A DNA stretch of 64,000 nt from an uncultured delta proteobacterium (GCA_963815115.1 CAWFFN010000009.1:1568001-1632000); one strand, 5' to 3'; shown: positions 1,537-42,755, numbered from the stretch's first letter. Translations and numbers: made by a program. Notes: generated by a model not told the origin, from the letters alone.

Positions 1537-1775
1537 CACGGGTACCTCCCTGCTGGTCGAAGGCTGGGCGTCCCGAACGCTACCCACCGGGGGGATGGCG
1601 TCAACGGAAACGGCGCAACTGGCAGTCCGAGCGTCCGAACGGTCGCAGGGCCGTCGCGTCCACGAGGCCTCGAGGGCCGGTCTTGGCGGCCTCGACACGC
1701 CTTTTTGCTTGACGACCGCCGGCGTATCCCGTACGCCCCGGAAGGTCACATCTCGCGTCGAGGGGGAGGGTCGAG

Positions 1776-11080: not shown

Positions 11081-11083
11081 CGC

Positions 11084-11215
11084 TTAGCCGTGACGCTTGA
11101 AGTACTGCACTGCGGGCTCGTGCTTCTCGGCCGCCTGCCGGCTGTCGAACGTCCCGAGGTTCTTGCGCTTGGCGGTCTGCCGATTCTTCTTCTGGGAGTA
11201 CAAGCAGATAGCCCT
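11084..11215 (-). pseudogene. Remnant of a small conserved basic hypothetical protein
   Basis: Manual translation LYSQKKNRQTAKRKNLGTFDSRQAAEKHEPAVQYFKRHG* resembles a ~50-aa family I recall (YRLYSRKK...RNLGTF...HERAVQYFKRH). The 5' end is replaced by IS30 sequence. Confidence 0.6.
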
Positions 11216-11342
11216 GCGGCGGGCGCGGACGGCGACCCGCACCGGGCAGCACCGCGGGCAGATCGTGAACGCGGTGTCGATCCGGGCGCGCCCGGCCGGG
11301 GTCGCCGATCGCGCGATGCCCGGCCACTGGGAAGGCGACTAG
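11215..11342 (+). mobile_element. Second IS30-family transposase fragment (internal part)
   Basis: RGQIVNAVSIRARPAGVADRAMPGHWEGD* is the IS30 segment leading to the first catalytic Asp, cut at GACTAG. Confidence 0.8.
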
Positions 11343-11364
11343 GTATGGCGGGAGCAGTACGCGG

Positions 11365-12471: not shown

Positions 12472-14153
12472 CGAGTCGCGCCTCCTCGCAGCAAGCGTCC
12501 GGGGAGTGGACCGTCCGGCTCGACGGCGTCACGCCCCTCGAGGCGGATGGGAACACCATTCACCACGACGGCACGGATGCCGAGCGCATCCGAGACCAGG
12601 CGGTCGGCGCCGGCTGGAAAGTCCCACACGCGACGCAGGGGGCTGCAGCTCACCGTTGCCGGGTCGAAGACGACGACATCCGCCGCGAGCCCCACGGCCA
12701 GTCGCCCGCGATCGCGCAGGCCGAAGACGGCCGCGGGCTGGCCCGTCAGCCGCCATACGCCATCCTCGAGGGCAAGGGTGCCGCGCTCGCGCACCCACGT
12801 GCCGAGCAGCTCGGTGGGGGCACACGCATCGCATAGCTGGCTCGCGTGCGCGCCGGCGTCGGAGAGGCCGAGCATGGTGGCCGGATGGGAGAGCAGCTCG
12901 GCGACGATCGCCGGGTCGGTGTTCAGGATGGCCAGGCGGAAGCGGGTCTCGAGTTCGCTCGCCAGCGCCAGGTCGAGCATCAGGTCGACCGGGTGCGTGC
13001 CGCGCTCGTCGGCGACGTCGCCGAGGCGGCGCTCGGCGAGCGCCGGGTCGGGCGGGTGCTCGGTGATCTGCATGTCGGCGAACCGTCCGCCGAGCGGTCC
13101 TGCCTCGGTGCGCTCGCGCAGCGCGCGCCGGAACGCCGGGTCGGCGTAGATGCGCCGCTTGCCCGCGGCGTCGGCCTGCGACACGGGCCGGAACAGCGAC
13201 ATGCTCTCGAGCGGGAAGGGCGCCTTCATCTGGAACTCGACCATGAGCGGCCGGCAGGAGACCTGCGGGATGACCGCGATGCCCTCGGCCTGCAGCGCCG
13301 ACGACTGCTCGAGGACGCCGCGGTGGCCGTCCGGGCCGAGCATGCCGCCGAGGAGCGCCGTCCACGTGACGGGCCGCGCCGTACGCCGGGCGATGTCGGC
13401 CAGCTCGCTCATGAAGAATCCGGGGCCGATCGTCGCCTGCATCACGCCGTGTCCGGTCTCGCCGAGGCAGCCGGCCAGCGTCTCGATCTCCGCCAGCGAC
13501 GCGGCCCGGCTGGGCACCGGACGGCCGGCATCGCCGACGTGCGTGGGCGACTTGGAGGTGGCGAAGCCGAGAGCGCCGGCGCGCAACGCGTCGAGGACCA
13601 GCGCGCGCATGGCCGCGACCTCCGCGTCGGTCGCCTCGCGCTCGGTCGCCTCCTCGCCCATGACGTGCAGCCGCACCGGCGTGTGGCCGACGAGCGCGCC
13701 GACGTTGATGGCCGTGCCGCGGCGCTCGAGCGCGTCGAGAAACTCGGGGAAGCTCTCGAACGGCCATTCCCGGCCGACGCCGGCGAGCAGCGCCTCGAGC
13801 GACATGCCCTCGACACGCTCGAGCGTGCGCAGGATCAGCTCGCGATGCGCCGGCCGCGTGGGCGCGACACCGAACCCGCAGTTGCCCATGACCACCGAGG
13901 TGACGCCGTGCCACGGCGAGATCGACAGCATGCGATCCCAGAACACCTGCGCGTCGTAGTGCGTGTGGATGTCGATGAAGCCCGGCGCGACGATGGCGCC
14001 CTCGGCATCGAGGGTGCGCGCGGCGGTGCCCGCCACGTCGCCGAGGGCGGCGATGCGACCGTCACGCACGGCGACGGCCCCGGGCGTGCGGGGTGCGCCG
14101 GTCCCGTCGACCAGCGTGCCGCCGCGGATCAGGAGGTCGTAGTGGTCGCTCAT
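12468..14153 (-). CDS. N-acyl-D-amino-acid deacylase family amidohydrolase
   Basis: Start MSDHYDLLIRGG; motifs PGFIDIHTHYDAQ, VVMGNCG, SDAGAH, RGRLAVGLAADVVVFDP. Confidence 0.9.
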   Translation of the reverse strand: MSDHYDLLIRGGTLVDGTGAPRTPGAVAVRDGRIAALGDVAGTAARTLDAEGAIVAPGFIDIHTHYDAQVFWDRMLSISPWHGVTSVVMGNCGFGVAPTRPAHRELILRTLERVEGMSLEALLAGVGREWPFESFPEFLDALERRGTAINVGALVGHTPVRLHVMGEEATEREATDAEVAAMRALVLDALRAGALGFATSKSPTHVGDAGRPVPSRAASLAEIETLAGCLGETGHGVMQATIGPGFFMSELADIARRTARPVTWTALLGGMLGPDGHRGVLEQSSALQAEGIAVIPQVSCRPLMVEFQMKAPFPLESMSLFRPVSQADAAGKRRIYADPAFRRALRERTEAGPLGGRFADMQITEHPPDPALAERRLGDVADERGTHPVDLMLDLALASELETRFRLAILNTDPAIVAELLSHPATMLGLSDAGAHASQLCDACAPTELLGTWVRERGTLALEDGVWRLTGQPAAVFGLRDRGRLAVGLAADVVVFDPATVSCSPLRRVWDFPAGADRLVSDALGIRAVVVNGVPIRLEGRDAVEPDGPLPGRLLRGGATR

Positions 14154-21112: not shown

Positions 21113-21174
21113 TTGACAAGGCACGGATCGGCCTTTAGACCGCTGACCGATCGGTTTAGCCCGATCGGTCAGCG
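21113..21174 (+). promoter_or_regulatory. Sigma70-type promoter plus palindromic operator upstream of the mevalonate/hopanoid operon
   Basis: TTGACA (21113-21118), 17 nt, TAGACC (21136-21141), then a perfect 14-bp inverted repeat CGCTGACCGATCGG-TTTAGC-CCGATCGGTCAGCG (21141-21174). Confidence 0.7.
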
Positions 21175-21206
21175 CTGGTGGGGCGGAGGGGTACGGGCTG
21201 AAATTC

Positions 21207-22499
21207 GTGGAGGACCAGATGGCTGGGGTTGAACTGGCAAGGCGTCGTGGTGGTCCTGACCGTGAGGTCAGCAGGCCGGAGCCCGTGATGCAGAGAGACG
21301 ATCCGGGCAGCGCTGCAGGCTCCCGGATCTCCGGTTTCGGTCAGCTGGCTCGCGCGGATCGGCTGGCGCGGCTCACGGAGCAGGCGGCACTGGGGGCCGG
21401 CGAGGCGCGGGACCTGGCCGCCGGCGAGCCCCTCTCCTTCGAGGCCGCCGATCACGTCATCGAGAACGCGATCGGGGTGCTCGGCCTGCCGCTCGGGGTT
21501 GCGCTCAACTTCCGCATCAACGGCCGCGATCGCCTGGTGCCGATGGCGATCGAGGAGCCGTCCGTGGTGGCGGCGGCCAGCAGCGCGGCGCGCCTGGTGC
21601 GATCGGCCGGAGGATTCCTCGCCGACGCCGACCAGGCGATCATGATCGGCCAGATCCACGTCCTGCGCGTGCCCGACGTCGCCGGCGCCAGGGCACGCCT
21701 CGAGGCGGCCGCGCCGCGGCTCCTGGCTGCGGCGGACGCCGTTCATCCCGGGATGGCGCGTCGGGGGGCCGGCGCGCGCGCGATCGAGGTACGCGAGCTG
21801 GCCACCACGCCATGCGGCCCGGTCCTGGTCCTGCATCTCGCGGTCGACGTGGGCGACGCCATGGGCGCCAACGTCGTGAACACGATGGTCGAGGCGCTGG
21901 CTCCCGAGGTCGCATCGCTGACCGGCGGCGAGGTCCGGCTCTGCATCCTCTCGAATCTCGCCGATCGGCGGCTCGCGCGCGCGACGGCGCGGATCCCGTG
22001 GAGCCTGCTCGACAGGGCGACCTACGGTGGACGGCAGGTGGCGGAGCGGATCGTCGAGGCGTGGGCGCTCGCGGCGGCGGATCCGTATCGCGCGGCGACG
22101 CACAACAAGGGGGTCATGAACGGGATCGACGCCGTCGCGCTGGCCACCGGCAACGACTGGCGCGGCATCGAAGCCGGTGCGCATGCCTGGGCCGCGTGCC
22201 GTGGCGGCTACGGGCCGCTCACGATCTGGTCGCTCGACGGCGAGACCCTCTGCGGCGCCATCGAGCTGCCGCTCGCGGTCGCCATCGTGGGCGGGCACCT
22301 CGACCTGAACCCGCGCGCCCGGCTGTCGCTCAAGCTCATGGGCGCCGAGTCGGCGCGTGACCTCGCGGCCGTGATGGCCGCGGTGGGCCTCGCCCAGAAC
22401 TTCGCCGCGCTGCGAGCCCTCGTCACCGACGGCATCCAGCGCGGCCACATGGCGCTGCACGCGCGCGGGCTTGCCCTGCGCCAGCGAAAGGGCGCTTGA
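21207..22499 (+). CDS. mvaA: HMG-CoA reductase, class II
   Basis: ENAIG, PMAIEEPSVVAA, DAMGAN, ILSNL, ATHNKGVMNG, GIQRGHMALHAR. Start uncertain (21207, 21219 or 21287). Confidence 0.92.
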   Translation: MEDQMAGVELARRRGGPDREVSRPEPVMQRDDPGSAAGSRISGFGQLARADRLARLTEQAALGAGEARDLAAGEPLSFEAADHVIENAIGVLGLPLGVALNFRINGRDRLVPMAIEEPSVVAAASSAARLVRSAGGFLADADQAIMIGQIHVLRVPDVAGARARLEAAAPRLLAAADAVHPGMARRGAGARAIEVRELATTPCGPVLVLHLAVDVGDAMGANVVNTMVEALAPEVASLTGGEVRLCILSNLADRRLARATARIPWSLLDRATYGGRQVAERIVEAWALAAADPYRAATHNKGVMNGIDAVALATGNDWRGIEAGAHAWAACRGGYGPLTIWSLDGETLCGAIELPLAVAIVGGHLDLNPRARLSLKLMGAESARDLAAVMAAVGLAQNFAALRALVTDGIQRGHMALHARGLALRQRKGA

Positions 22500-24427
22500 T
22501 GCTGCAGGCCACTCCGGCAGCCGCTCCGTCCCTCGCGCGACGGCTCGACGACGCCATCGCCCGGGCCCAGACGCGACTGCTCGGGATGCAGCATCCGGAC
22601 GGCTACTGGCATGCGCCCCTCGAGGCGAACGTGGGGATGGACGCGCAGTACGTGATCTTCAACCGCTTCGTCGGCCGGCGGCGCCAGGAAACCGAGCAGC
22701 GGCTGGTGGCGCGCATGCAGGCGCTCCAGTCGGCGGACGGGAGCTGGCCGCTGTTCGCGGGCGGTCCCGGCCATCTCAGCACCACGATCGAGGCCTACTT
22801 CGCGATGAAGCTCGCCGGGCTGACGGCCGAGCATCCCGTGCTGCGCCGGGCGCGCGAGTTCATCCGCGCTCACGGCGGTCTCGAGCGCGCCGGCGTCTTC
22901 ACGCGATGCTTCCTGGCGTACTTCGGCCAGTTCCCCTGGTGGGGCCTGCCCGCGATGCCGGTCGAGCTGGTGCTTCTCCCGCCCTGGTTCCCGCTCAACA
23001 TCTACGCCATGTCGAGCTGGGCCCGGGAGACCGTGGTGCCGCTCACCGTGCTGATGGCGAAGCGGCCCCGGGTTGCCATCCCTCCCGAGTGTGGCGTCGA
23101 GGAGCTGTGGCTCGCGCCGCCGACGAGGCAGAGCGTGGGCTTTCCGCCCAGCCGCGAATGGCTCTCGATCCGCAACGGCTTCCTGGCGCTCGACTGGGTC
23201 CTGCAGCGGATCGGCCGCAGCCCGTGGAAGCCTTGGCGAGCGCGCGCGCTCGAGAGGGCGCAGGCGTGGATCCTCGAACGCCAGGACCGCAACGGCGGCT
23301 GGGGCGGCATCCAGCCTCCCATGCTCAACTGCGTGATGGCGCTGCACGCGCTCGGGTTCGCCGCCGATCATCCGGCGGTGGTGAACGGCATCCAGGCGAT
23401 CGAGGACTTCCTCGTCGAGCACGACGGCCAGCTCTTCTTCCAGCCGTGCGTGTCGCCGACCTGGGACACGGCGCTCGCCCTGAAGGCGCTCCTCGATTCG
23501 GGATTGCCCGCGCAGCACGAGGCCGCGGTGGGCGCGGCGGAGTGGCTCATCGAGAACCAGGTGTTCCGCCCGGGCGACTGGAGCGTGCTCAACCCGGACC
23601 TCGAGCCGGGCGGCTGGGCGTTCGAGTTCGCCAACGACTGGTATCCCGACACCGACGACACGGCGGTGATCTTGATGGTGCTGCGGCGGATCGCCGTCCA
23701 GGACGCGGCGGCGCGGCAGCGCGCGATCGCGTTCGGCACCAACTGGGTTCTCGGCATGCAGAGCAGGAACGGCGGCTGGGGCGCCTTCGACACCAACAAC
23801 ACCGCGGCGTTCCTGAACGAGATCCCGTTCGCCGACATGCGGGCGATGATCGACCCGCCGACCGAGGACCTGACCGGCCGCCTGCTCGAGCTCATGGGCG
23901 AGAGCGGCTTCGATCTCACCTACACCCGCGCCCGGCGCGCGCGTGCCTTCCTCGTCGCGACGCAGCGCGCGGACGGCGCCTGGTGGGGACGGTGGGGCGG
24001 CAACTTCGTGTACGGCACGTGGTCGGCGCTCGCGGGCCTGCGCGCCATCGGCGAGGACATCGATGCGCCGTACGTGCGTCGCGCGGCCTCCTGGCTGGAG
24101 TCGCACCAGAACTCCGACGGCGGCTGGGGCGAGACGCTCGCGTCCTACGACGACGAGTCGCTCGCCGGCCGCGGCGAGTCGACGCCCTCGCAGACGGCGT
24201 GGGCGCTTCTCGGGCTCCTCGCCGCGACGCGGGACGTCGGGGAGGCGGTCGGGCGCGGCGTCGAGCACCTGCTCGCCACGCAGCGCGCGGATGGCGGCTG
24301 GGACGAGGATCCGTTCACCGGCACCGGATTCCCGGGGCACTTCTATCTGCGGTACTGGATGTACCGGGACTACTTCCCGCTGATGGCCCTGGGCCAGTGC
24401 CGCGCGCGACTGGAGGAGGGACGATGA
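22499..24427 (+). CDS. shc: Squalene-hopene cyclase
   Basis: DxDD motif (YPDTDDTA), QW repeats (QHPDGYW, QSADGSW, QSRNGGWGAFD, QRADGAW, QNSDGGWGE), FTGTGFPGHFYLRY. Confidence 0.97.
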   Translation: MLQATPAAAPSLARRLDDAIARAQTRLLGMQHPDGYWHAPLEANVGMDAQYVIFNRFVGRRRQETEQRLVARMQALQSADGSWPLFAGGPGHLSTTIEAYFAMKLAGLTAEHPVLRRAREFIRAHGGLERAGVFTRCFLAYFGQFPWWGLPAMPVELVLLPPWFPLNIYAMSSWARETVVPLTVLMAKRPRVAIPPECGVEELWLAPPTRQSVGFPPSREWLSIRNGFLALDWVLQRIGRSPWKPWRARALERAQAWILERQDRNGGWGGIQPPMLNCVMALHALGFAADHPAVVNGIQAIEDFLVEHDGQLFFQPCVSPTWDTALALKALLDSGLPAQHEAAVGAAEWLIENQVFRPGDWSVLNPDLEPGGWAFEFANDWYPDTDDTAVILMVLRRIAVQDAAARQRAIAFGTNWVLGMQSRNGGWGAFDTNNTAAFLNEIPFADMRAMIDPPTEDLTGRLLELMGESGFDLTYTRARRARAFLVATQRADGAWWGRWGGNFVYGTWSALAGLRAIGEDIDAPYVRRAASWLESHQNSDGGWGETLASYDDESLAGRGESTPSQTAWALLGLLAATRDVGEAVGRGVEHLLATQRADGGWDEDPFTGTGFPGHFYLRYWMYRDYFPLMALGQCRARLEEGR

Positions 24428-27891: not shown

Positions 27892-27992
27892 CACTCGATG
27901 AAGAGTGCGGGCGTCGTGCCGCGGCCGGCGAAGCCGGCGCGGCAGCCGTCCCGGACGCCACACGCTCGCTCTTCTAGCGGAGGTCGAAGCGC

Positions 27993-28991
27993 ATGAGGTT
28001 TCCCGTCCACATCGCCACCGACATGATCGCGTGGCAGCTGCGGAACTGGTGGCGCGGCAACGCGCGCTATCCGTCCGTGCTGATGCTCGAGCCGCTCCAC
28101 ACCTGCAACCTCGCCTGCCTCGGCTGCTCGCCGGAGCGCTACAGCGGCGACCTGAAGGATCGCCTCTCGCTCGCCCAGTGCCTGGAGGCGGTGGACGAGG
28201 CGGGCACCCCGGTGGTGTCGATCTGCGGCGGCGAGCCGACCATCTATCCCGAGCTGCCCGAGCTGATCGACGCCATCGTGGCCCGCAAGCGCCACATCTA
28301 CCTGTGCACCAACGGGCTCCTGCTCGAGCGCTTCTACAAGCGTGGCCATCCCCACAAGCGGCTCTCCATCAACGTGCACCTCGACGGCATGCGCGCGACG
28401 CACGACCTGATCACCGACCGGGCCGGCACCTTCGACCGCGCGATCGAGATGATCAAGGAGGGCAAGCGGCGCGGCTACGCCGTGTGCACCAACACGACGA
28501 TCTTCCGTGAGACCTCGATGGACGAGATCGAGGAGATGTGCGAGCTGCTCACCGGGCTCGGCGTCGACGGCATGCTGATCTCGCCCGGCTACCACTACGC
28601 GGCCATCGCGGAGGATCGCTTCCTCCATCGCGACGAGACCCATCGCCAGTTCCAGCGCGTGCTCGCGCTGTCCAAGCGCTATCCCATCTCCTCGACGCCG
28701 CTCTTCCTCCAGTTCGCGGCCGGGCAGCGCGACTACCCGTGCACGCCGTGGGGGACCCCGACCCGCACCCCGAAGGGCTGGAAGGGGCCCTGCTACCTCA
28801 TCGAGGGCAAGTACTACGGGAGCTGGAAGGACTTCTGGGGCGGCGTCGACTGGGACTACTGGGAGTCGCGCCAGGACCCGCGCTGCCAGAACTGCTTCAT
28901 GCACTCCGGCTTCGAGCCGTCGGTCGTCCGCAAGCTCGGCGAGAGCCCGCGCGACGTGTGGACGATGGCGCGCTGGAACCTGGGCGCGTGA
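27993..28991 (+). CDS. hpnH: Adenosylhopane synthase, radical SAM
   Basis: YPSVLMLEPLHTCNLACLGC (CxxxCxxC), YLCTNG, CTPWGTPT, PCYL, DPRCQNCFMHSGFE. Confidence 0.92.
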   Translation: MRFPVHIATDMIAWQLRNWWRGNARYPSVLMLEPLHTCNLACLGCSPERYSGDLKDRLSLAQCLEAVDEAGTPVVSICGGEPTIYPELPELIDAIVARKRHIYLCTNGLLLERFYKRGHPHKRLSINVHLDGMRATHDLITDRAGTFDRAIEMIKEGKRRGYAVCTNTTIFRETSMDEIEEMCELLTGLGVDGMLISPGYHYAAIAEDRFLHRDETHRQFQRVLALSKRYPISSTPLFLQFAAGQRDYPCTPWGTPTRTPKGWKGPCYLIEGKYYGSWKDFWGGVDWDYWESRQDPRCQNCFMHSGFEPSVVRKLGESPRDVWTMARWNLGA

Positions 28992-34743: not shown

Positions 34744-37491
34744 TCAAGGTTTTCTGCCGGAGGACGGCGGGAGATGCTGGGATTTCGCGCGGGGGAGCGC
34801 GGTCACGATCCGATTGAGAGCGTCGGGCTCGACCGGCTTCGTGACGTGATGGTCGAATCCGGCGGTCCTCGTCCGCTCCCGGTCTTCCTCCTGGCCGTAT
34901 CCGGTCAGTGCCACCAGGAGGATGTGTTGCAGGCGCGCATCCTGCCGCACGCGGCGGGCGACCTCGTACCCGTCGATGCCCGGGAGACCGATGTCGACGA
35001 GCATGACGTCGGGCGGGGAGGTCCGCGCGAGATCGAGCGCGGTGGCTCCATCGTGGACCGTCCGGACCCGGTGTCCGAGCATCTCCAGCAGCATCGTCAA
35101 GGCCTCGGCGCCGTCCCGGTTGTCCTCCACGACCAGCACGCGCCGGTCACCTCGCTCTGCCGAGCGCTCCTCGGAAGCCGGGGCGGCGGTGCGCTCGACG
35201 CCGGGCGGGAGAACCGGAAGTCGCACGACGAACTCCGCACCCTTTCTGGGCCCGTCGCTCCGGGCCTCGACCCGGCCGCCGTGGAGCTCGACGAGCTGCC
35301 GCACGACGGTGAGCCCGATGCCCAGTCCGCCGTGGGCTCGGGCAACGCCGGGATCCGCCTGCGCGAAGAGGTCGAAGACATGCGGCAGGTGCTCGGGCGC
35401 GATCCCGACACCATTGTCCCGGACGCGCAGCACTGCGTCCCTCCCGTCCCGGGCGACCGTGATCTCGATGCGGCCGCCCGGCGCGGTGTACTTGGCTGCG
35501 TTCGAGATCAGATTCACCACCACCTGCTCGAGCCTCGTCGCGTCCCCTTCGACCTCCAGGCCGTCGGGCGCCGGTGAGAGCGAGAGATGGTGCGCGCGAT
35601 CCTCGACGAGCTGCTGCGTGCTTTCGACGGCTCGCTCGACGATGCTGGCGAAGCGCAGGCGCTGGGTGCGCAGCGTGATCTTCCCATGCGTGATCCGCGC
35701 AACGTCGATCAGGTCGTCGATGAGTTGCGCGAGCTGGTCCGTGCCACGGCGAACGATGTGGAGCGCGCGCTCTCGGCGCGCCGGGTCGAGCGACGCGGCG
35801 ACGGCCGCATTGCGCACTGCCGCCAGCGGATTGCGCAGCTCGTGCCCGAGCATCGCGAGGAACTCGTCCTTCGCCCGATTGGCGGCCTCCGCGTCGCGCC
35901 GCGAGCGACGTTCGGCGTCGTAGAGACGCGCGTTGTCGATCGCGATCGCGGCCTGGGCGGCGAACCCCACGACGACACGCTCCGCGTCCTCGGTGAACAC
36001 CCCGGGCTCGGGATGGCCGAGGAACAGGCCCCCGAACACCTCGCCGGAACGACCGACGAGCGGTACCGCGAGATAGCTCGTCACCGGAAGGTGACCCCGC
36101 GGCATCCCGTGGTGCGGAGGGTTCTTGCCGTAGCGCGGGTCCTTCCTGACGTCGTCGAGCCGCACCACGCGTTCTCCCGCGAACGTCGTCGCGAACAGGG
36201 CGGTGTTGCGCGGCATCCCGAGCTTCTCGAACGCTTCGCGCGGCGCCCCGGAGAGCGCGTAGAGCAGATAGTGGCCGCCTTGATCGTCGATGGCGTTGTA
36301 GAAGAACGCGCCGAACTTCGCGTGGGTCAGGCTCGTGGCGGCGTCGGTGATGGCCTGGAGCAGCTTCTGGGGGTCCAGCTCCGCGGAGAGCGCCTGGCCG
36401 ATCTGGTTGAGGGTGGCGACCATCGCGCGGCTGTGAAGAAGCGCCTCTTCGGACCGCTTCCGTTCCGTCACGTCGCGCGCGATCTTCGAGACCCCCACCA
36501 CGTCGCCGGACGCATCCCGGATCGGTGAGAGCGTCAGCGAGACGTGGATGCGCCGTCCGTCCTTGCACACGCGCCGGGTCTCGAAGTGCTCGATCCGCTC
36601 GCCGCGACGGAGCGCCGCGAGGGTCGTCTCGAGCTCGTCCGCGCCGTCGGCGGGGAGAAGACGCGCGATCGGGTGCCCGATCATCTCCTCGGGCGCGTAG
36701 CCGAAGAGGTGCTCGGCAGCGCGGTTCCAGCTCGTGACGACGCCGTCCAGGGTCTGGCTGATGATGGCATCGTTGGACGACTCCACGATGGCCGCGAGGC
36801 GCGTCCGCTCCGCGATCTCGGCGTCGAGCGCGCTGGCCCTCTGCTGGAGCCGGACGATCTCGCGCAGCCGCTCGTCCGTGCTGTCCAGCGCCGTATAGCT
36901 CTCGGCGGGGATCACGTGGGAGTGCGCTCCACAGATCTCGAGTACGCGAGAGCCGTCGCCGCCGTCGTGGAGGGTGGTCAACGGGTAGGCGCACAGGAGC
37001 GACAGCGGCAGGCTGGCGACGAGGTGGTTCCAGAGCTCCTCGAGGCGGAGGGCTGCGTCCGTCCTCCCCTCTGCCCATAGCAGCGCCACCATCTCTCCGA
37101 AGGCACGGACGCGAGCATGGCGCTCCGCGGCTCGCTCGACCACCTCTCCGACGACGTCGGCGAAGCGCGTCACATCCGGCGCCTCGTCGACCATGACCTT
37201 CGCCAGGGTCTCGGCGGCGTCCAGCTCGACGTAGCGGCCTTGCTCGCGGGCGACTGCCAGCTGCACCCCGCGCGCAGCGATGCTCTCCCGGAGACCCTCG
37301 AGATGCGGCCTCGTCGCGATGACGACGGCCGCCTCGCCAGCTCCGAGGCCGGCACCGATGAATCGTGCCGCCTCCGCCAGAAGGAAGGAGTCGCGCTCGT
37401 AGAACTGAACCAGATGCGTGCGGCGGTCGACGTCGGGCGCGCTCGAGCCCGCAATGCCCGTCGCAGGTTCCGAGACCGGACCGGTACTCAT
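34744..37491 (-). CDS. Hybrid sensor histidine kinase (MEDS-PAS-GAF-HisKA-HATPase-REC)
   Basis: MEDS (HLVQFYE, RAFGEMVALLW, LEELWN, LLCAYP), PAS (IVESSNDAII, SWNRAAE), GAF, H-box FLAMLGHELRNPL, NAAKYT, GGLGIGL, receiver (VVEDN, DIGLPGIDG, KP). Confidence 0.92.
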   Translation of the reverse strand: MSTGPVSEPATGIAGSSAPDVDRRTHLVQFYERDSFLLAEAARFIGAGLGAGEAAVVIATRPHLEGLRESIAARGVQLAVAREQGRYVELDAAETLAKVMVDEAPDVTRFADVVGEVVERAAERHARVRAFGEMVALLWAEGRTDAALRLEELWNHLVASLPLSLLCAYPLTTLHDGGDGSRVLEICGAHSHVIPAESYTALDSTDERLREIVRLQQRASALDAEIAERTRLAAIVESSNDAIISQTLDGVVTSWNRAAEHLFGYAPEEMIGHPIARLLPADGADELETTLAALRRGERIEHFETRRVCKDGRRIHVSLTLSPIRDASGDVVGVSKIARDVTERKRSEEALLHSRAMVATLNQIGQALSAELDPQKLLQAITDAATSLTHAKFGAFFYNAIDDQGGHYLLYALSGAPREAFEKLGMPRNTALFATTFAGERVVRLDDVRKDPRYGKNPPHHGMPRGHLPVTSYLAVPLVGRSGEVFGGLFLGHPEPGVFTEDAERVVVGFAAQAAIAIDNARLYDAERRSRRDAEAANRAKDEFLAMLGHELRNPLAAVRNAAVAASLDPARRERALHIVRRGTDQLAQLIDDLIDVARITHGKITLRTQRLRFASIVERAVESTQQLVEDRAHHLSLSPAPDGLEVEGDATRLEQVVVNLISNAAKYTAPGGRIEITVARDGRDAVLRVRDNGVGIAPEHLPHVFDLFAQADPGVARAHGGLGIGLTVVRQLVELHGGRVEARSDGPRKGAEFVVRLPVLPPGVERTAAPASEERSAERGDRRVLVVEDNRDGAEALTMLLEMLGHRVRTVHDGATALDLARTSPPDVMLVDIGLPGIDGYEVARRVRQDARLQHILLVALTGYGQEEDRERTRTAGFDHHVTKPVEPDALNRIVTALPRAKSQHLPPSSGRKP

Positions 37492-37690
37492 GGAGTGTCC
37501 CTCGGTGAGCGGAACCCGGATACCCGTTCGGTCCGAGGCTGACAAGGCTCATCAATGCGCCGTTGCCGGCCCGCACGCAACGCGTCGAGGGTCCCGGCCC
37601 GGATCGCGGGGAGGCGCGGCGAGCGACGTCGGAGAAGGACGAGCTCGCCGCGTAGCTTAGGACGGCTTGGCAGCGAGTGCCTCTTTTTCC

Positions 37691-37720
37691 TTGACAGTCG
37701 GCGATCTGGGCGAGTAGTCA
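37691..37720 (+). promoter_or_regulatory. Probable sigma70 promoter for the CREF-gene cluster
   Basis: TTGACA at 37691-37696 after a T-rich tract; TAGTCA 18 nt downstream. Confidence 0.4.
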
Positions 37721-37774
37721 CACCGGCTACGAAGATCCGGGGCCAGCAGGCCCAGGCATACGAAAGGCAGGCAA

Positions 37775-38464
37775 ATGCGATCCCCGTGCACTACTCGACG
37801 ACGTCACGGCGCCCGGCGCGGGACGCGGGCGTTGCGCGCGGGCGGCGCGCTGATCGTGGCTCTTGCGCTTGCGGCCGGGATGCGCGCGTCGCCGGCGCTG
37901 GCGCAGTGTTCGGACACCGACGCCGACGGCGTGTGTGACGACGTCGACAACTGTCCGGCACTCGCGAACCCGGATCAGGCCGATCTCGACGGCGACGACG
38001 TCGGGGACGCGTGCGATCCGAGCGACGCCGAGCTGAACGTCACCAAGCTCGAGATGGCGCGCGACTCGAGCGCCAACAACGACTCGAGCCTGTACCGCGC
38101 GAAGGGCGACTTCTTCACGAACCCGCCCACCGACACGCTGACCGCCGTCGCCGGCCTCACGGTGCACGTCGCGGACGCCCTCGGGACGGACTCGACGCAG
38201 GTGTGGACGCCCGCGGACTGCGCGAAATCGGCGCCCGGAAAGATCATCTGCGTCAGTGCCGACAGGAACGCCAAGCTCTCCGCCAAGGCCATCAAGGCCA
38301 CGCCGGCGGTGTTCAAGTTCACGCTGAAGGTCCGCCGCGTGGGGTTCACGGGGCCGTTCGACGGGCCGGTCCAGGTGACGCTGAGCAACGGCGCCATCGA
38401 CCGCTTCGGCATCATCATGGACTGCCGGGTGAGCAACAAGGGGCTCACCTGCCGCGAGTTCTGA
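37775..38464 (+). CDS. Secreted TSP3-repeat protein with conserved C-terminal CREF domain (1)
   Basis: Signal ending ASPALA; DTDADGVCDDVDNCPALANPDQADLDGDDVGDACD; ~145-aa CTD ending DCRVSNKGLTCREF. Confidence 0.85.
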   Translation: MRSPCTTRRRHGARRGTRALRAGGALIVALALAAGMRASPALAQCSDTDADGVCDDVDNCPALANPDQADLDGDDVGDACDPSDAELNVTKLEMARDSSANNDSSLYRAKGDFFTNPPTDTLTAVAGLTVHVADALGTDSTQVWTPADCAKSAPGKIICVSADRNAKLSAKAIKATPAVFKFTLKVRRVGFTGPFDGPVQVTLSNGAIDRFGIIMDCRVSNKGLTCREF

Positions 38465-38495
38465 GCGCCGTCAGCACGCGGCCTCTGGGGGAGCC

Positions 38496-39266
38496 ATGCG
38501 CAACGAGATCGCACGTCGACTGACCGGCCGCGGCGGAGCACGTCTGGTCGCGGGAGCCGTCCTGCTCGGCAGCTTGCTCGTGATCGCCGCCGTCTCCGTG
38601 GCCATCGCCTGCACCACCGACGCGCAGTGCGATGACGGCGACGCCTGCAACGGCGTCGAGAGCTGCAACACCAGCACCATGATGTGCGAGCCGGGCGTTC
38701 CCGCCGGCCCCGACGCGGACGGCGACGGGATCTGCGACGCCGGCGACAACTGCCCGACCGTCGCCAACCCGGGCCAGGCAAACCTCGACGGCGACGCGCT
38801 CGGCGATGTCTGCGACGATGCCGACGCCACCCTGAGCCCCACCAAGATCACCCTGCGGCGCAACAACGGCGGTCAGGGCGACAAGAGCGCGGCCAAGGGC
38901 AAGGGCTTCTTCGTCACCGCGCCGCCGGGAGACACCTTCAACGGCGCCGCCGGCTTCCAGATCCGCATCCAGGACGGCATCGGCCTCGACGTCACGCGCG
39001 GCTTCAGCGCCGCCGAGTGCGTGGCCGCCGGCACGAAGGTGAAGTGCAAGAGCACGGACAAGTCGCGCAAGGCGTCGCTCAAGGGCCTCGCGGCGACGCC
39101 GCAGGTGATCCAGTTCAGCTACGTGTTCAAGCGACTCGGCCTCGCGGGACCATTCAACGGGCCGGTGTCGGTGACCCTCACGCAGAACGGCAGCGCGATC
39201 GACCGCGCGGGAGTCGCGACGGACTGCCTGATCAAGCTGCTCGGGCTCGCCTGCCGCGAGTTCTAG
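38496..39266 (+). CDS. Secreted Cys-repeat/TSP3 protein with C-terminal CREF domain (2)
   Basis: Signal peptide; CTTDAQCDDGDACNGVESC repeat; TSP3; CTD ending DCLIKLLGLACREF. Confidence 0.85.
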   Translation: MRNEIARRLTGRGGARLVAGAVLLGSLLVIAAVSVAIACTTDAQCDDGDACNGVESCNTSTMMCEPGVPAGPDADGDGICDAGDNCPTVANPGQANLDGDALGDVCDDADATLSPTKITLRRNNGGQGDKSAAKGKGFFVTAPPGDTFNGAAGFQIRIQDGIGLDVTRGFSAAECVAAGTKVKCKSTDKSRKASLKGLAATPQVIQFSYVFKRLGLAGPFNGPVSVTLTQNGSAIDRAGVATDCLIKLLGLACREF

Positions 39267-39290
39267 CCGTCGTCGACGAAGGAGATCCCC

Positions 39291-41261
39291 ATGCGCGGCA
39301 CTTGCCGGACCGCCCTCGCAGTCGCCCTCGCCGCCCTCGCCCTCGCGGGCGCGAGCCGGCCGGCTTTCGCCACCCACTTCCGCTACAGCCACCTCAGCTG
39401 GTCCGTGGTCAGCGGCAGGACGGTCGAGTTCACCCTGCAGAGCAGCTGGCGGCGCAACGACACGCCGAGCTTCAATCCGTGCGTGAACCCGACCACCAAC
39501 GTCGTCGTTCCGTGCACCGGTGGCGACGGGCTGCCCGCACCGGGCGACATCATCCGTGAGGACATCGGCGACACGCGACTCGATTTCGGCGACGGCAGCC
39601 CCACCGTCGGCTCGGGGACCAGCGGCGGCCTGTTCTATCTCGTCACCTCGGTCGACCCGGCGAACAACTGGCTCTTCGGCCTGGCGCTCGACACGGCCGC
39701 GCTGCCGGTCATCGACACCACGATCCGGCACACCTACGCGGCGGCCGGCACCTACACGGCGTTCATCGCGTCGTGCTGCCGGATCCAGGCCAACGCACCG
39801 CCGAACGCCCACATCAACAATCCCGAGTTCGACTACCAGGTGCAGGCCGTGGTGGAGCTGGGCCAGGACAACGCCTCGGCGACGACGGCGCTGCCGCCGA
39901 TCGTCACCTGCGAGCAGAACAGCGTATGCTCGTTCCTGGTGCCGGCCACCGATCCCGACGGCGACACGCTCACCTTCCGCCTCGCGACGCCGTCCGAGGC
40001 CGACGGCGGGGCCTTCAAGCAGCCCGGCCCCCCGCAGGCGACGAACGGCGCCAGCATCAACCCGACGACGGGGATCTACACCTGGGACACCACCGGCGCC
40101 ACGCTCGGACCGGTGGGGCTGAACACGCTCTACTCGACCCAGGTGGTGATCGAGGAGCGCGACGCGATGAACAACGTCAAGGGCCGCGTCGCCGTCGACT
40201 TCTTCATCCAGCTCGTGCCGCACGTGAACCAGCCGCCCGTGTTCAGCAGCCCGGCCTGCAACTCCACCCTGACCCCGTCCACGGGCGTGCCCTTCTCCTT
40301 CAACGTGCAGGCCTCCGATGCCGACTCGGGCGACGTGGTCACCCTGAACGCCGCCGGCCTGCCCGCGGGCGCCAGCATGACCCCGCCGCTACCGACCACG
40401 GGCAATCCCGTGAGCAGCCTCTTCGGCTGGACGCCGCTGATCTCGCAGGCGGGCAACTACATCGTCACCTTCACGGCCACCGACCAGGCGTTGCAGCAGG
40501 CGCTGTGCTCGATCACCCTGGTGGTCAACTCGCAGTGCGGCGACGGCAATCTCGACCCGGGCGAGCAGTGTGACCCGGGCCCCGACGCCGCCAACGACTG
40601 CTGCACGATCGACTGCCAGTTCGAGACCGACGGGACGTCCTGCGGTGGGTCTCCGGTGTGCGGTGGGCCGAGCTCGTGTGCCTCCGGCGTCTGTACGCCC
40701 GGAGCCGGCGGGACCGACAGCGACGGCGACGGCGTGATCGACTGTCAGGACAACTGCCCGACGATCGCCAACCCGGGCCAGTCGGACATCGACGGGGACG
40801 GCATCGGCGACGTCTGTGACGCCGAGGACGCTCCGCTCACGGTGAACCGGCTCAAGATGAAGGGTAACGCGGCCAAGGGCTCCACGGTCGGCAAGGGCAG
40901 CTTCGTGTCGCTCCTGCCTGCCGATGCGCTCACCTCGGCGCAGGGCATCACCTTCCGCGTGCGCGACCGCCTCGAGTCGGACGTGCAGCACTCCTGGGCG
41001 AGCGCCGAGTGCGCCGTCACGCCGTCGAGCGGCCGCATCAAGTGCCTGAGCGCCGACAAGCGCTTCCGCGCGGACCTGAAGCCGGTGCCGAAGACGCCCA
41101 ACGCCGTGCGCTGGGCGTTCAAGATGAAGAAGCTCTCGCTGGTCGCGCCCTTCAAGTCGCCGATCAGCGTGACGTTGACCTACGGTGCGGGAATCGACCG
41201 CGTCGGGGTCATCCACGACTGCGCGGCGAAGAACGCGTCGATCGTCTGCCGCGAGTTCTGA
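39291..41261 (+). CDS. Large secreted adhesin-like protein (Ig/cadherin-like repeats, Cys-rich repeat, TSP3) with C-terminal CREF domain (3)
   Basis: RBS AAGGAG; signal ending PAFA; THFRY..LSW N-domain; ATDPDGDTLTF and ASDADSGDVVTL repeats; CGDGNLDPGEQCD; TSP3; CTD ending DCAAKNASIVCREF. Confidence 0.85.
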   Translation: MRGTCRTALAVALAALALAGASRPAFATHFRYSHLSWSVVSGRTVEFTLQSSWRRNDTPSFNPCVNPTTNVVVPCTGGDGLPAPGDIIREDIGDTRLDFGDGSPTVGSGTSGGLFYLVTSVDPANNWLFGLALDTAALPVIDTTIRHTYAAAGTYTAFIASCCRIQANAPPNAHINNPEFDYQVQAVVELGQDNASATTALPPIVTCEQNSVCSFLVPATDPDGDTLTFRLATPSEADGGAFKQPGPPQATNGASINPTTGIYTWDTTGATLGPVGLNTLYSTQVVIEERDAMNNVKGRVAVDFFIQLVPHVNQPPVFSSPACNSTLTPSTGVPFSFNVQASDADSGDVVTLNAAGLPAGASMTPPLPTTGNPVSSLFGWTPLISQAGNYIVTFTATDQALQQALCSITLVVNSQCGDGNLDPGEQCDPGPDAANDCCTIDCQFETDGTSCGGSPVCGGPSSCASGVCTPGAGGTDSDGDGVIDCQDNCPTIANPGQSDIDGDGIGDVCDAEDAPLTVNRLKMKGNAAKGSTVGKGSFVSLLPADALTSAQGITFRVRDRLESDVQHSWASAECAVTPSSGRIKCLSADKRFRADLKPVPKTPNAVRWAFKMKKLSLVAPFKSPISVTLTYGAGIDRVGVIHDCAAKNASIVCREF

Positions 41262-41319
41262 GGGGGACAACCGTCGGCCCGGCGTCCTTCGTGGCGCCGG
41301 GTCGCACGGGCCGATCGGC

Positions 41320-41511
41320 TCAGGAGCCGAGAGCGGGTTGGGGGACCGCCGCGCGCAGCATCACGGCGTTGAAGAGAGCCACCCAGGCGCCGTGGTCGAT
41401 GTAGCCTTCCAGGTGGTCCTCGCTCCAGCCGAAGGCGAGCTGGGGATCCTCCCAGACCTCGACCAGCTGTCCCTGGAGGAGGAGCCGGCGTCGCGGTGTG
41501 CTCGGGGTCAT
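41320..41511 (-). CDS. Small hypothetical protein (63 aa)
   Basis: GAGG RBS just after the upstream stop; MTPSTPRRRLLLQGQLVEVWEDPQLAFGWSEDHLEGYIDHGAWVALFNAV. Confidence 0.55.
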   Translation of the reverse strand: MTPSTPRRRLLLQGQLVEVWEDPQLAFGWSEDHLEGYIDHGAWVALFNAVMLRAAVPQPALGS

Positions 41512-41521
41512 CGGCGCGTCC

Positions 41522-41707
41522 TCAGGCGGCCGCGACGCGCGAGGGGCGAACGTCGCCCATCTCGAACTTGGCGCCACGGAAGTTGCCGCACAGCCTGACG
41601 GTTCCGGAGTTGACGAGGTGGACCACCGTCGCGACGACCTCCGAGTCGGTGCGGGCGTATGCGGAGACGGCGGTCACGAGATCGAGCAGCGTGCATTCGG
41701 CTGGCAT
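41522..41707 (-). CDS. Small hypothetical protein (61 aa)
   Basis: AGAGGA RBS; MPAECTLLDLVTAVSAYARTDSEVVATVVHLVNSGTVRLCGNFRG has protein-like composition. Confidence 0.6.
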   Translation of the reverse strand: MPAECTLLDLVTAVSAYARTDSEVVATVVHLVNSGTVRLCGNFRGAKFEMGDVRPSRVAAA

Positions 41708-41900
41708 CGTCGGTTCCTCTCTTGGGGGGCGACCCGTCGCCTCCTCTGACAGCACTACGCCCATCACCCGGTCCCGGATGTTCAGACGAGGAAAAGCCGC
41801 GAAATCGTGCACGGACGGTACCATTGGGCAGGGTCGCCGCCCGCAAGACGGGCGCGAGCCTCCGGCCCCGGCACGTGGTACGACCAGCCCGGGTGTCCCG

Positions 41901-42755
41901 GTGAAACGCCTCATCGTCACGGCCGACGACTTCGGCCTGTGCGAGCCGGTCAACGAGGCCGTCGAGATCGCGCACCGCGAGGGCATCCTCTCGACGGCCA
42001 GCCTGATGGTCGGCGGCGGTGCGGCGGACGATGCCGTGGCCCGCGCGCGCCGGCTCCCGCGGCTGCGGGTGGGCCTGCACGTCGTCGTCGTCGAGGACCT
42101 GCCGGTGCTGCCCCGCGCCCAGGTCGCGAGCCTGACGGACGATCACGGATATCTCTCCGGCCGCCTGGTCAGCTCCGGCGTGCGATTCTTCTTCAGCCCC
42201 GCGGCCCGGCGGCAGCTCGAGGCGGAGATCCGGGCGCAGTTCCAGCGTTTCGCGGCCACGGGTCTGGAGCTCGACCACGTCAACGCCCACAACCACATGC
42301 ACCTGCACCCGACGGTCCTCGGCATGATCCTGCGGGTGGGACGGGAGTTCGGGCTGCGCGCCATGCGCGTGCCGTGGGAGCCGCCGTTGATCTCGTGGCG
42401 CATCACCGGACGGGGGCTGGCGCCGAAGATGGCCGCCGCGGCCGGACTCGCGCCGTGGATGGCCGCGTTGCGCGCCCGGCTACGGCGCCGCGACATCCGG
42501 ACCAACGACCTGGTGCTCGGACTCGGGGCCACCGGCGCGATGGACGAGAGCACGGTGCTGCGGCTCCTCGAGATGCTTCCGGCCCGCCGCGTGGCCGAGA
42601 TGTACTTCCATCCGGCGACGCGCCGGTCGCCGGAGATCGACCGCACGATGCCGACGTACCGCCACCAGGACGAGCTGGCGGCGCTCACCAGCCGTCGGGT
42701 CCGCCAGGCGCTGGAGCGCCTCGCGATCCGCCCCGTGACCTTCAGGGAGCTCTGA
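41901..42755 (+). CDS. hpnK: Hopanoid biosynthesis-associated YdjC-family deacetylase
   Basis: KRLIVTADDFG, GILSTASLMV, VGLH, LDHVNAHNHMHLHPTV, EMYFHP, ELAALTS. Confidence 0.85.
   Translation: MKRLIVTADDFGLCEPVNEAVEIAHREGILSTASLMVGGGAADDAVARARRLPRLRVGLHVVVVEDLPVLPRAQVASLTDDHGYLSGRLVSSGVRFFFSPAARRQLEAEIRAQFQRFAATGLELDHVNAHNHMHLHPTVLGMILRVGREFGLRAMRVPWEPPLISWRITGRGLAPKMAAAAGLAPWMAALRARLRRRDIRTNDLVLGLGATGAMDESTVLRLLEMLPARRVAEMYFHPATRRSPEIDRTMPTYRHQDELAALTSRRVRQALERLAIRPVTFREL

Follow-up and report, generated by a model that had tools for sequence, protein, structure and literature searches.

In a 64-kb stretch of DNA (64,000 nucleotides; hereafter, the window), three adjacent genes of a Binatia-type bacterium code for exported proteins that all end in one module, consisting of a TSP3-type Ca-binding repeat and a C-terminal domain of 146-149 aa. 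The domain belongs to a large family that has no name in Pfam and NCBIfam and that forms the tail of very diverse passengers or of none. Binatia are widespread uncultured bacteria of soil and sediment. The earlier note on this DNA had described three co-oriented genes of 229, 256 and 656 aa sharing the TSP3 repeat and a C-terminal domain with four Cys and a terminal CREF; the ORFs, the translations and the alignment agree with this description. Its account of the gene contents, in which gene 1 is only the module, gene 2 adds a Cys-rich stretch and gene 3 adds an adhesin-like region, also stood (Table 1).

Table 1. Features of the three-gene cluster, with positions counted from the first nucleotide of the window.
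Feature	Position	Strand	Description
Gene 1 (P0001)	37775-38464	+	229 aa; signal peptide, one TSP3 repeat and C-terminal domain, no other cargo
Signal peptide, gene 1	37775..37903	+	residues 1-43; predicted Sec type, cleavage ALA/QC, by inspection
TSP3-type Ca-binding repeat, gene 1	37907..38017	+	residues 45-81; invariant motif columns; pLDDT 83-94
C-terminal domain, gene 1	38018..38461	+	residues 82-229; ends CREF; HMM E = 6e-69
Gene 2 (P0002)	38496-39266	+	256 aa; signal peptide, Cys-rich stretch, TSP3 repeat, C-terminal domain
C-terminal domain, gene 2	38817..39263	+	residues 108-256; ends CREF; HMM E = 7.5e-63
Gene 3 (P0003)	39291-41261	+	656 aa; adhesin-like, same C-terminal module
N-terminal passenger, gene 3	39372..40529	+	residues 28-413; SIBA-E_N-like and PKD-like region, He_PIG Ig-like domain
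Cys-rich repeats and TSP3 repeat, gene 3	40530..40820	+	Cys-rich residues 414-472, TSP3 residues 473-510
C-terminal domain, gene 3	40821..41258	+	residues 511-656; ends CREF; HMM E = 6e-69

The third-position GC of the frames of genes 1, 2 and 3 was 0.89, 0.90 and 0.95, respectively, as compared to ca. 0.70 overall, and the frames were thus taken as coding; the long antisense ORFs were rejected as high-GC artefacts. The genes are separated by 31 nt (genes 1 and 2) and 24 nt (genes 2 and 3). A promoter and terminator scan returned no sites, and Rfam gave no matches over positions 37300-41700. Word-based homologue searches gave 7, 6 and 4 matches. Orthologues of gene 1 (70-96% identity) have the same start and length, and six orthologues of gene 3 were 60-89% identical across the C-terminal region.

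Inspection of the N-termini predicted a Sec signal peptide in each protein, with a basic n-region, a hydrophobic core and cleavage sites ALA/Q, AIA/C and AFA/T in genes 1, 2 and 3, respectively. Residues 1-40 of gene 1 had pLDDT values below 55 in the full-length model. A Tat signal was rejected on inspection of the three sequences as the hydrophobic consensus is absent from the RR region, and a lipoprotein signal was rejected as the recurring A-x-A/C sites look more like sites of signal peptidase I than like a lipobox. In gene 2, the predicted signal peptide (residues 1-38) is followed by the Cys-rich stretch (residues 39-66), while the predicted mature N-terminus of gene 3 is THFRY. The passenger of gene 3 matched He_PIG (PF05345) at residues 315-412 with 27.4 bits, above the Pfam cut-off of 24. 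SIBA-E_N (PF24907) scored 27.8 bits at residues 99-189 (Pfam cut-off, 28.1), and the gene 3 orthologue P0011 carries PF24907 in the database's precomputed Pfam annotations. Big_9 reached 22 bits against the passenger (Pfam cut-off, 23.6), and the CGDG..EQCD repeat of gene 3 reached 15.9 bits against myxo_disulf_rpt, below the cut-off of 20.8. Relatives of the passenger by itself occur in MAGs of Nitrospirota and Chloroflexota, where the C-termini are different.

The TSP3 repeat, located at residues ca. 72-107 in gene 2, passed the Pfam TSP_3 cut-off (PF02412, 25 bits) only in gene 3 (29.9 bits), with genes 2 and 1 scoring just under it (24.4 and 21.6 bits); its core columns D..DNCP..ANP.Q...DGD..GD.CD are invariant in the three-way alignment. 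In the domain that follows, DA.L, KG.F, four Cys (C149, C159, C217 and C226 in gene 1 numbering), PF..P..VTL, IDR.G, DC and CREF are invariant across the three proteins. BLASTP between the paralogues gave E values of 1e-40 to 1e-48, and, as judged at the sequence level from BLASTP and the HMM, the similarity of the three C-termini is far beyond chance.

AlphaFold predicted the gene 1 domain alone as an all-beta fold of 12 strands (pLDDT 91.0, pTM 0.84), and the full-length model of gene 1 had pLDDT values of 83-98 across residues 41-229. In the model, C149/C159 and C217/C226 each lie on neighbouring strands, and these two pairs may form disulfides that staple hairpins. Foldseek searches of the PDB with both models gave no match at E ≤ 1e-3; the best neighbours were the archaellin globular domains 8rh5, 5z1l and 7ofq, which were non-significant (E of 7.9e-3 to 4.1e-2; TMq of 0.41-0.47; 7-9% identity). 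A PDB sequence search with the domain profile gave no match at E ≤ 10, and no Pfam or NCBIfam model matched the domain in the three proteins. The statement in the earlier note that the domain was unrecognised, thus, held in the Pfam, NCBIfam, PDB sequence and fold searches. The best scores in the ESM Atlas (0.88 and 0.85) were below the 0.9 mark and serve as leads only. Kinship with two further C-terminal modules that lack annotation, on neighbouring or related proteins (L004:14234-14833 and L011:11973-12572), was rejected because the hhalign probability was 0.6%. A complex prediction for two domain copies scored 0.00 against a mark of 0.42 and gave no answer.

With the E cut-off set at 1e-3, an exhaustive profile search found 675 representative clusters, of which 369 reached E ≤ 1e-10. 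Counts of position, tail and cargo rest on the best 150 of these 675 matches, in 145 of which the domain ends at most six residues from the end of the protein; three of the other five are fragments cut inside the domain. The domain is C-terminal in its relatives as had been anticipated, and the passengers ahead of it proved as varied as the cargo of the three genes had suggested. Among 68 long relatives, Pfam identified NosD/beta-helix passengers in 16 and several beta-propeller families, together with Disintegrin (5), DUF4215 (4), Calx-beta (2), ice-binding-like adhesive domains and He_PIG. NCBIfam assigned choice-of-anchor families I (5/68), Q (2/68 long and 1/81 short relatives) and D (1/68). 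The domain thus occupies the place where choice-of-anchor families would otherwise bear an anchor. Taken together, the passengers are of kinds characteristic of surface or extracellular proteins. On the other side, 29 of 78 complete representatives are cargo-free, in that no more than 70 residues separate the domain from the core of the signal peptide; the TSP3 repeat is missing from seven of the 29. The four Cys are 97-100% conserved in the domain family, as are G30, D53, P117 and R129.

From this architecture, we tentatively read the module as a Ca-linked docking or anchoring unit for extracytoplasmic proteins. The TSP3 repeat and the beta-sandwich would form a self-contained docking unit, by which such proteins are held on a ligand common to them in the envelope or extracellular matrix; this ligand may be a glycan or a receptor protein. 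With Ca bound, the TSP3 repeat would serve as a rigid stalk together with the Cys-rich repeats. Gene 3 would be an adhesin displayed through the module, and genes 1 and 2, as copies free of cargo, would occupy or organise the same docking sites. In favour of this reading are the size and C-terminal position of the family, its passengers and cargo-free members, the layout comparable to that of Myxococcus TraA and the small paralogue retained upstream of gene 3 orthologues. Two known systems resemble this arrangement. The thrombospondin signature domain (1ux6) has the same order of parts, namely Cys-rich (EGF-like there), TSP3 and a terminal beta-sandwich; however, the proteins described here have a single TSP3 repeat, Foldseek against 1ux6 gave a prob of 0.21 and a TMq of 0.15, and TSP_C (PF05735) had no Pfam match in genes 1-3. 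The dockerin-cohesin pair likewise has a Ca-binding loop repeat adjoining a beta-sandwich of ca. 150 aa, comparable to the docking role proposed here, but no Pfam match was obtained, no cohesin was among the best 50 Foldseek matches listed per query, and no partner scaffold was identified. As a separate observation, the conserved residues, namely Cys, Gly, Pro, a single Asp and a single Arg, seem to have a structural role rather than to form a binding site, which speaks against docking.

A broader reading, to which we give less credence, is that the module is the tag of an undescribed, Binatia-centred anchoring or sorting system, in which a folded domain of 146 aa, in place of a short peptide, would direct dozens of different exported proteins to one candidate receptor or outer-membrane translocon, with the cargo-less paralogues as regulators or building blocks. 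Gene neighbourhoods bear on the docking reading as well. Fifteen related loci were found with a full-length alignment of the gene 3 family, and these were thus retrieved through gene 3 rather than through the domain; a four-sequence domain alignment used as the locus query matched 159 stretches, none of which was confirmed. Those of the loci that bear the domain all belong to Binatia or to unclassified 'delta proteobacterium' MAGs. Against docking, no receptor-like gene is common to the neighbourhoods in the window and seven loci. No usher, chaperone, sortase, conserved translocon or peptidase was found among the 41 window ORFs and the 43 ORFs from the seven loci that were scanned. The co-occurring outer-membrane protein or peptidase that the earlier note proposed to look for did not appear as a conserved gene among these ORFs. 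Only L003 has flanking genes in common with the window (ABC ATPase and MlaC), and the position of the histidine kinase upstream in the window, next to the cluster, is not conserved. In L001, the cluster adjoins polysaccharide-export genes (Poly_export/SLBB and Wzz), in favour of docking; a sigma54 response regulator takes the corresponding position in L002 and L010, where the downstream ORFs were outside the scan. Against docking, the polysaccharide-export neighbourhood is missing from the window, L003, L004 and L005. A sorting system may exist, but no cognate machinery for it was found among the ORFs scanned.

It is unlikely that the domain acts in secretion or sorting proper, as a folded C-terminal beta domain that is read by an outer-membrane translocon (cf. 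the T9SS CTD and the T11SS cargo barrel) and possibly removed later. Its C-terminal position, a diverse Sec-exported cargo that overlaps that of known sorting tags (choice-of-anchor included) and an apparent restriction to one lineage, with the relatives of the gene 3 N-terminus in other phyla bearing other C-termini, would all fit such a function. However, more than one third of the complete members are cargo-free, and a mere export tag would thus find nothing to export there. Neither a flexible linker nor a conserved cleavage motif precedes the domain, as the disulfide-bonded TSP3 repeat directly adjoins it, and the scanned ORFs hold no conserved translocon, peptidase or sortase. The terminal residues also vary. 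The earlier note had taken an invariant CREF with a terminal Phe as the signal, and expected relatives to end in CREF, but this ending was found in only 22 of the 145 relatives whose domain is C-terminal, and the final residue among them was F in 39, P in 36, L in 22, R in 13 and Y in one. The related loci have tails such as CREL, CRER, CREK, CRQF, CKEF, CREAF and ..NCKE. The model places CRE within the last beta-strand, fixed by a predicted disulfide, rather than in a free tail. The CREF ending is formed, in one subfamily, by this strand and two further residues, and it is no sorting motif; conservation lies in the last strand with its predicted disulfide staple rather than in the terminal residues. 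With F last in 39/145, the ending does not behave as the beta-signal of outer-membrane proteins (terminal Phe/Trp).

The known C-terminal tags differ from the domain in several respects. The T9SS CTD (Por_Secre_tail, PF18962/TIGR04183) is likewise a folded beta-sandwich that ends many unrelated Sec-exported proteins, but T9SS CTDs occur in Bacteroidota hosts and differ in size from the domain of the Binatia proteins, which has ca. 146 aa, four Cys and a TSP3 prefix. Neither Por_Secre_tail nor any other tag model matched the three proteins at E ≤ 1. The T9SS tail model was absent from the 4 Pfam and 12 NCBIfam families of 81 short relatives and, for the 68 long relatives, from the first 25 families listed for each database (of 40 in Pfam and 37 in NCBIfam), and no T9SS core family (PorK/L/M/N, Sov, PorU/V) matched among the 41 and 43 ORFs scanned in the 64-kb window and the 22-kb loci. 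MYXO-CTERM and PEP-CTERM tags consist of a short motif, a hydrophobic transmembrane helix and a basic cluster, whereas the tail here is globular, hydrophilic and predicted to be disulfide-bonded; the last 40 residues of genes 1-3 hold beta-strands ending in ..DC......L.CREF and no hydrophobic helix, and the NCBIfam tag models were unmatched. LPXTG motifs were also absent from genes 1-3. Proteins with MYXO-CTERM or PEP-CTERM type tags share passenger families with the domain, e.g. choice-of-anchor and scytonemin ScyF-like PEP-CTERM proteins. Myxococcus TraA is described with a recognition domain, Cys-rich repeats and a C-terminal tag (PMC6372800), a layout that parallels the signal peptide, passenger, Cys-rich part and C-terminal domain of the module proteins.

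A periplasmic role is rather improbable. In such a role, the TSP3 repeat and the sandwich would bind either peptidoglycan or the outer membrane from its inner side, similar to the TSP3 linkers of OmpA-family proteins. The paper on TraA (PMC6372800) places TSP3 repeats in periplasmic linkers of OmpA-type proteins, e.g. TraB, beside the OmpA domain, and the products of genes 1-3 may, by this analogy, never reach the surface. The NCBIfam Omp28-related and MtsC models match 47/68 long and 36/81 short members in the TSP3 part only, and the NosD-like, YncE-like and TolB-like propeller passengers have periplasmic namesakes. On the other hand, other passengers are adhesin-like (He_PIG, ice-binding-like, Calx-beta, disintegrin and choice-of-anchor), and no OmpA or peptidoglycan-binding model in Pfam and NCBIfam matched the domain.

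The assembly model of the earlier note, in which the domain polymerises and the small-small-large layout represents a filament or surface layer with its major, minor and tip subunits, fared worse and is very doubtful. A small paralogue lies directly upstream of the full-length gene 3 orthologue in six of six loci (L001-L005 and L010), family members appear repeatedly to share contigs, as judged from equal lengths of the longest contig (P0067/P0068, P0059/P0144 and P0149/P0107), and the best Foldseek neighbours, albeit non-significant, are archaellin globular domains. Yet, only one small gene, rather than two, is present in L001, L002, L004, L005 and L010, and the large passengers of most relatives are enzyme-like or propellers, unlike filament subunits. 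The predicted sandwich is closed and complete in itself, with no missing strand, unlike chaperone-usher and sortase pilins, which have an incomplete Ig fold with a donor strand or LPXTG; moreover, no usher, chaperone or sortase was found nearby, and the window proteins lack the pilin-like N-terminal helix. A docking or anchoring domain is more likely than either a secretion tag or filament subunits. A recent local tandem duplication, which would leave the shared C-terminus of the three adjacent paralogues without special meaning and which the earlier note had named as the refuting alternative, is itself refuted by the 675 clusters elsewhere and by a tree in which each of the three window copies pairs with the copy at the matching position in L003 (support 88-98; gene 2 with L003:10130-10576 at 98/98 and gene 3 with L003:12135-12584 at 97/97), with 57-65% identity to this counterpart as compared to 35-41% to its window neighbours.

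Whether as the docking or anchoring unit proposed here or otherwise, the domain, present on at least 675 protein clusters, offers a handle on how Binatia display or retain adhesins, beta-helix enzymes and propellers. Defining the family would better annotate hundreds of proteins now called 'hypothetical' or merely 'TSP3 repeat' and would mark extracytoplasmic proteins in MAGs, while the TSP3 repeat and domain together (ca. 185 aa) are a concrete target for structure and ligand work. If a cognate receptor or translocon exists, it would join the few systems for C-terminal sorting and anchoring known in bacteria.

Genes 1 to 3, which encode P0001 to P0003, are co-oriented and separated by 31 nt (genes 1/2) and 24 nt (genes 2/3). 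Since their third-position GC is 0.89-0.95, they were taken as true coding frames in the window, whose G+C content is ca. 70%; long antisense ORFs were rejected as composition artefacts. By inspection, each N-terminus is basic and then hydrophobic, followed by an A-x-A site (ALA|Q, AIA|C and AFA|T). A three-way alignment confirmed the proposal of the earlier note that the products of this tandem share a TSP3 repeat and a C-terminal module ending in CREF: the TSP3 core is followed by a region of 146-149 aa (the domain), in which KG.F, four Cys, PF..P..VTL, IDR.G, DC and the terminal CREF are invariant. BLASTP between the paralogues gave E values of 1e-40 to 1e-48, and the similarity is therefore not due to chance.

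Positions in the window of the three genes and the divergent upstream gene
Feature	Position	Strand	Remark
Gene 1 (P0001, 229 aa)	37775-38464	+	ORF call
Gene 2 (P0002, 256 aa)	38496-39266	+	ORF call
Gene 3 (P0003, 656 aa)	39291-41261	+	ORF call
Hybrid histidine kinase (MEDS-PAS-GAF-HisKA-HATPase-receiver)	34744-37545	-	Upstream of cluster, divergent

No Pfam or NCBIfam model covers the last ca. 146 residues of genes 1 to 3. Elsewhere in the window proteins, Pfam TSP_3 scored 29.9, 24.4 and 21.6 bits (cut-off 25), NCBIfam myxo_disulf_rpt matched weakly, and the NCBIfam MtsC and Omp28-related models matched the TSP3 stretch only, far under their cut-offs. Gene 3 additionally matched Pfam He_PIG (27.4 bits; cut-off 24), SIBA-E_N (27.8 bits; cut-off 28.1) and Big_9 (22 bits; cut-off 23.6). 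A profile of the domain found no PDB sequence at E <= 10, and a full-text search of the literature found no description of it; it may have been published elsewhere.

The structure of the domain alone was predicted with AlphaFold2 from an alignment of 17 sequences (A5) taken from window and locus DNA alone. The model is all-beta with 12 strands (pLDDT 91.0, pTM 0.84). In a full-length model of gene 1, based on a 65-sequence alignment, the block from residue 41 to the end, TSP3 repeat included, had pLDDT values of 83-98. In this model, the strand of C149 (149-152) is next to that of C159 (156-160), and the strands of C217 (217-219) and C226 (223-227) are likewise neighbours; these Cys pairs may form two hairpin-stapling disulfides. 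The last strand is L-T-C-R-E, and CREF is thus the end of the fold rather than a free tail. Foldseek searches of the PDB with both models gave no match at E <= 1e-3; the top rows were archaellin globular domains, which were non-significant (E 7.9e-3 to 4.1e-2, TMq 0.41-0.47). Thrombospondin 1ux6 reached a Foldseek probability of 0.21 and TMq 0.15. The earlier view that the domain is unrecognised was thus borne out by sequence and structure comparisons alike.

An exhaustive hmmsearch with A5 over 1.84 billion representatives yielded 675 proteins at E <= 1e-3; at the stricter limits of E <= 1e-10 and E <= 1e-30 the numbers fell to 369 and 33. The family rules were drawn from the best 150 of the 675. 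Among these 150, no more than 6 residues follow the domain in 145, in agreement with the C-terminal placement that the earlier note had expected. P0091, P0131 and P0150 are truncated within the domain, and P0069 has an internal domain followed by a low-complexity tail. P0085 was rejected as a member since it matches profile positions 4-65 only, repeatedly. This protein is a 'tandem-95 repeat protein' of Vibrio alginolyticus (2889 aa) with 10 such stretches, an indication that the domain may resemble an Ig-like repeat unit in its first half; one short member also matches NCBIfam tand_rpt_95 (E = 0.0012). In an alignment of 151 domains, all four Cys are conserved at 97-100%, and G30, D53, P117 and R129 at >=91% each. 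In the 145 from the best 150, the last Cys lies 1-4 residues before the end in 143, and the residue after it is R or K in 113. At the final position, F was counted 39 times, P 36 times, L 22 times and R 13 times, and the endings CREF and C[RK]EF occur in 22 and 25, respectively. These frequencies, together with the position of CREF in the fold, speak against CREF as a sorting signal. A TSP3 repeat usually precedes the domain, with a Ca-loop or GD.CD motif immediately upstream in 67-78 of 134 full-length domains.

The passengers are diverse, as had been anticipated. Pfam matches in the 68 long members include NosD (16), Beta_helix (9), several beta-propeller families (4-5 members each), Disintegrin (5), DUF4215 (4), Dicty_CTDC (4), He_PIG (3), Calx-beta (2), and Ice_binding, pAdhesive_15 and FG-GAP (1 each); NCBIfam matches include choice-of-anchor I (5), Q (2) and D (1) as well as peptidases, and choice-of-anchor Q also occurs in one short member. 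C-terminal tag models were absent from the 4 Pfam and 12 NCBIfam families matched by the 81 short relatives, and from the first 25 of 40 Pfam and the first 25 of 37 NCBIfam families matched by the long ones. Stand-alone members were counted among 78 representatives with an M start, an N-terminal hydrophobic core and a complete domain. In 29 of these, <=70 residues separate the hydrophobic core from the domain, and 7 of the 29 have no TSP3 repeat either; the module is therefore often the entire mature protein. An export tag would then lack cargo, which favours a docking or anchoring module and makes it unlikely that this C-terminal domain is a folded secretion signal. That it is a periplasmic module appears somewhat less likely still.

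The filament model, in which the small-small-large layout reflects subunits of a filament or surface layer, drew no support from the genomic context and is improbable. The window scan covered 41 GC3-selected ORFs out of 48 listed, the others being genes 1 to 3, two overlapping ORFs and two that run antisense within gene 3; in stretches such as 24.4-28.0, 29.8-31.8 and 32.5-34.2 kb no ORF passed the filter, and these are hence unannotated. Among the 41 ORFs, no sortase, exosortase, usher, T9SS component or dedicated peptidase was adjacent to the cluster, and a search around it for promoters, terminators and Rfam elements was negative. Genes of ordinary metabolism are found in the window together with hopanoid genes and envelope genes (Mla and LolA-like), and YdjC-like and carbonic anhydrase genes lie downstream of the cluster. 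Isoprenoid/hopanoid genes lie on either side (21147-24427, 27978-28991 and 41373-42755), and the flanking genes there encode HMG-CoA reductase, squalene-hopene cyclase, a radical-SAM + DUF3463 (HpnH-like) protein and a YdjC-like protein. A lactonase-type beta-propeller ORF (1-1875, - strand) has its C-terminus beyond the window start, and propeller proteins occur among the family members; a DUF1800 protein of 780 aa is encoded at 1713-4052 (+ strand).

Besides close orthologues, word-based searches found a single further protein (31% identity), which comes from an NCBI 'Candidatus Binatia' MAG and also ends in CREF. A scan of GTDB-representative genomes with an alignment of the gene-3 family gave 15 loci, and the domain HMM was run over all ORFs of the window and these loci. 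In the window and L003 the domain occurs in three genes next to each other, in L001, L002, L004, L005 and L010 in two neighbouring genes (a small gene, then the gene-3 orthologue), and in L009 in one 984-aa protein. Every copy lies at an ORF end, with tails CREF, CREL, CRER, CREK, CRQF, CKEF, CREAF, ..NCKE and CRK, and each domain-bearing locus comes from a MAG with the label Binatia or 'uncultured delta proteobacterium'. N-terminal relatives of gene 3 from Nitrospirota, Dehalococcoidia and Ardenticatenaceae MAGs have different C-termini. T-H-F-R-[YH] directly follows the predicted signal-peptidase site (A|THFR) in 7/7 gene-3 family members, an unusually fixed mature N-terminus seen in gene 3 (window 39372-39390) and in relatives P0011-P0016 and P0031. 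The gene-3 orthologue at L010:10099-12649 is split across overlapping frames (10099-11691 and 11021-12649), reflecting either a MAG-assembly frameshift or a pseudogene. Proteins at L004:12668-14833 and L011:10041-12572, the latter gene-3-like in its N-terminal part, carry a different unannotated beta-rich C-terminal module ending in '..C-W-x-A-x-Y..'; it was rejected as a relative since hhalign against the domain profile was not significant.

The locus context scan covered 43 ORFs among 127 candidates from seven loci. Flanking genes are common to the window and L003 only, and the histidine kinase was not found beside the cluster in L001-L005 or L010. Large co-oriented secreted proteins with Dicty_CTDC Cys-rich repeats are encoded immediately upstream of the domain genes in L001 (926-9717), L002 (2701-9704) and L010 (2901-4649), and in the two largest the repeats are followed by a terminal tail that is basic and probably helical. 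Downstream are Poly_export/SLBB (Wza-like) and Wzz genes in L001, a sigma54 response regulator, where the scan ended, in L002 and L010, and a MacB-like permease and wax-ester synthase in L004 and L005. The scanned ORFs of the window and seven loci contain no common partner gene such as a specific outer-membrane protein or peptidase. Plain local duplication is refuted by the 17-domain tree, in which each window copy pairs with its positional counterpart in L003 (support 88/96, 98/98 and 97/97), and the paralogues are therefore older than that split.

These observations describe a large and unnamed family of beta domains that are strictly C-terminal, probably contain disulfides and are carried by exported proteins whose passengers are exchangeable. 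What stands of the earlier interpretation is an undescribed, strictly C-terminal domain with diverse cargo; the CREF signal and the filament subunits do not. The evidence for a new domain family is solid, and its general kind, C-terminal modular domains of exported proteins, is already known. According to PMC6372800, TraA has the order variable domain, Cys-rich repeats and MYXO-CTERM, and TraB combines TSP3 repeats with OmpA. Since a rigid connection links the module to Ca-binding and Cys-rich stalk elements and the module occupies the anchor position of 'choice-of-anchor' and TraA-like architectures, we tentatively suggest that the domain may act as a docking or anchoring module.
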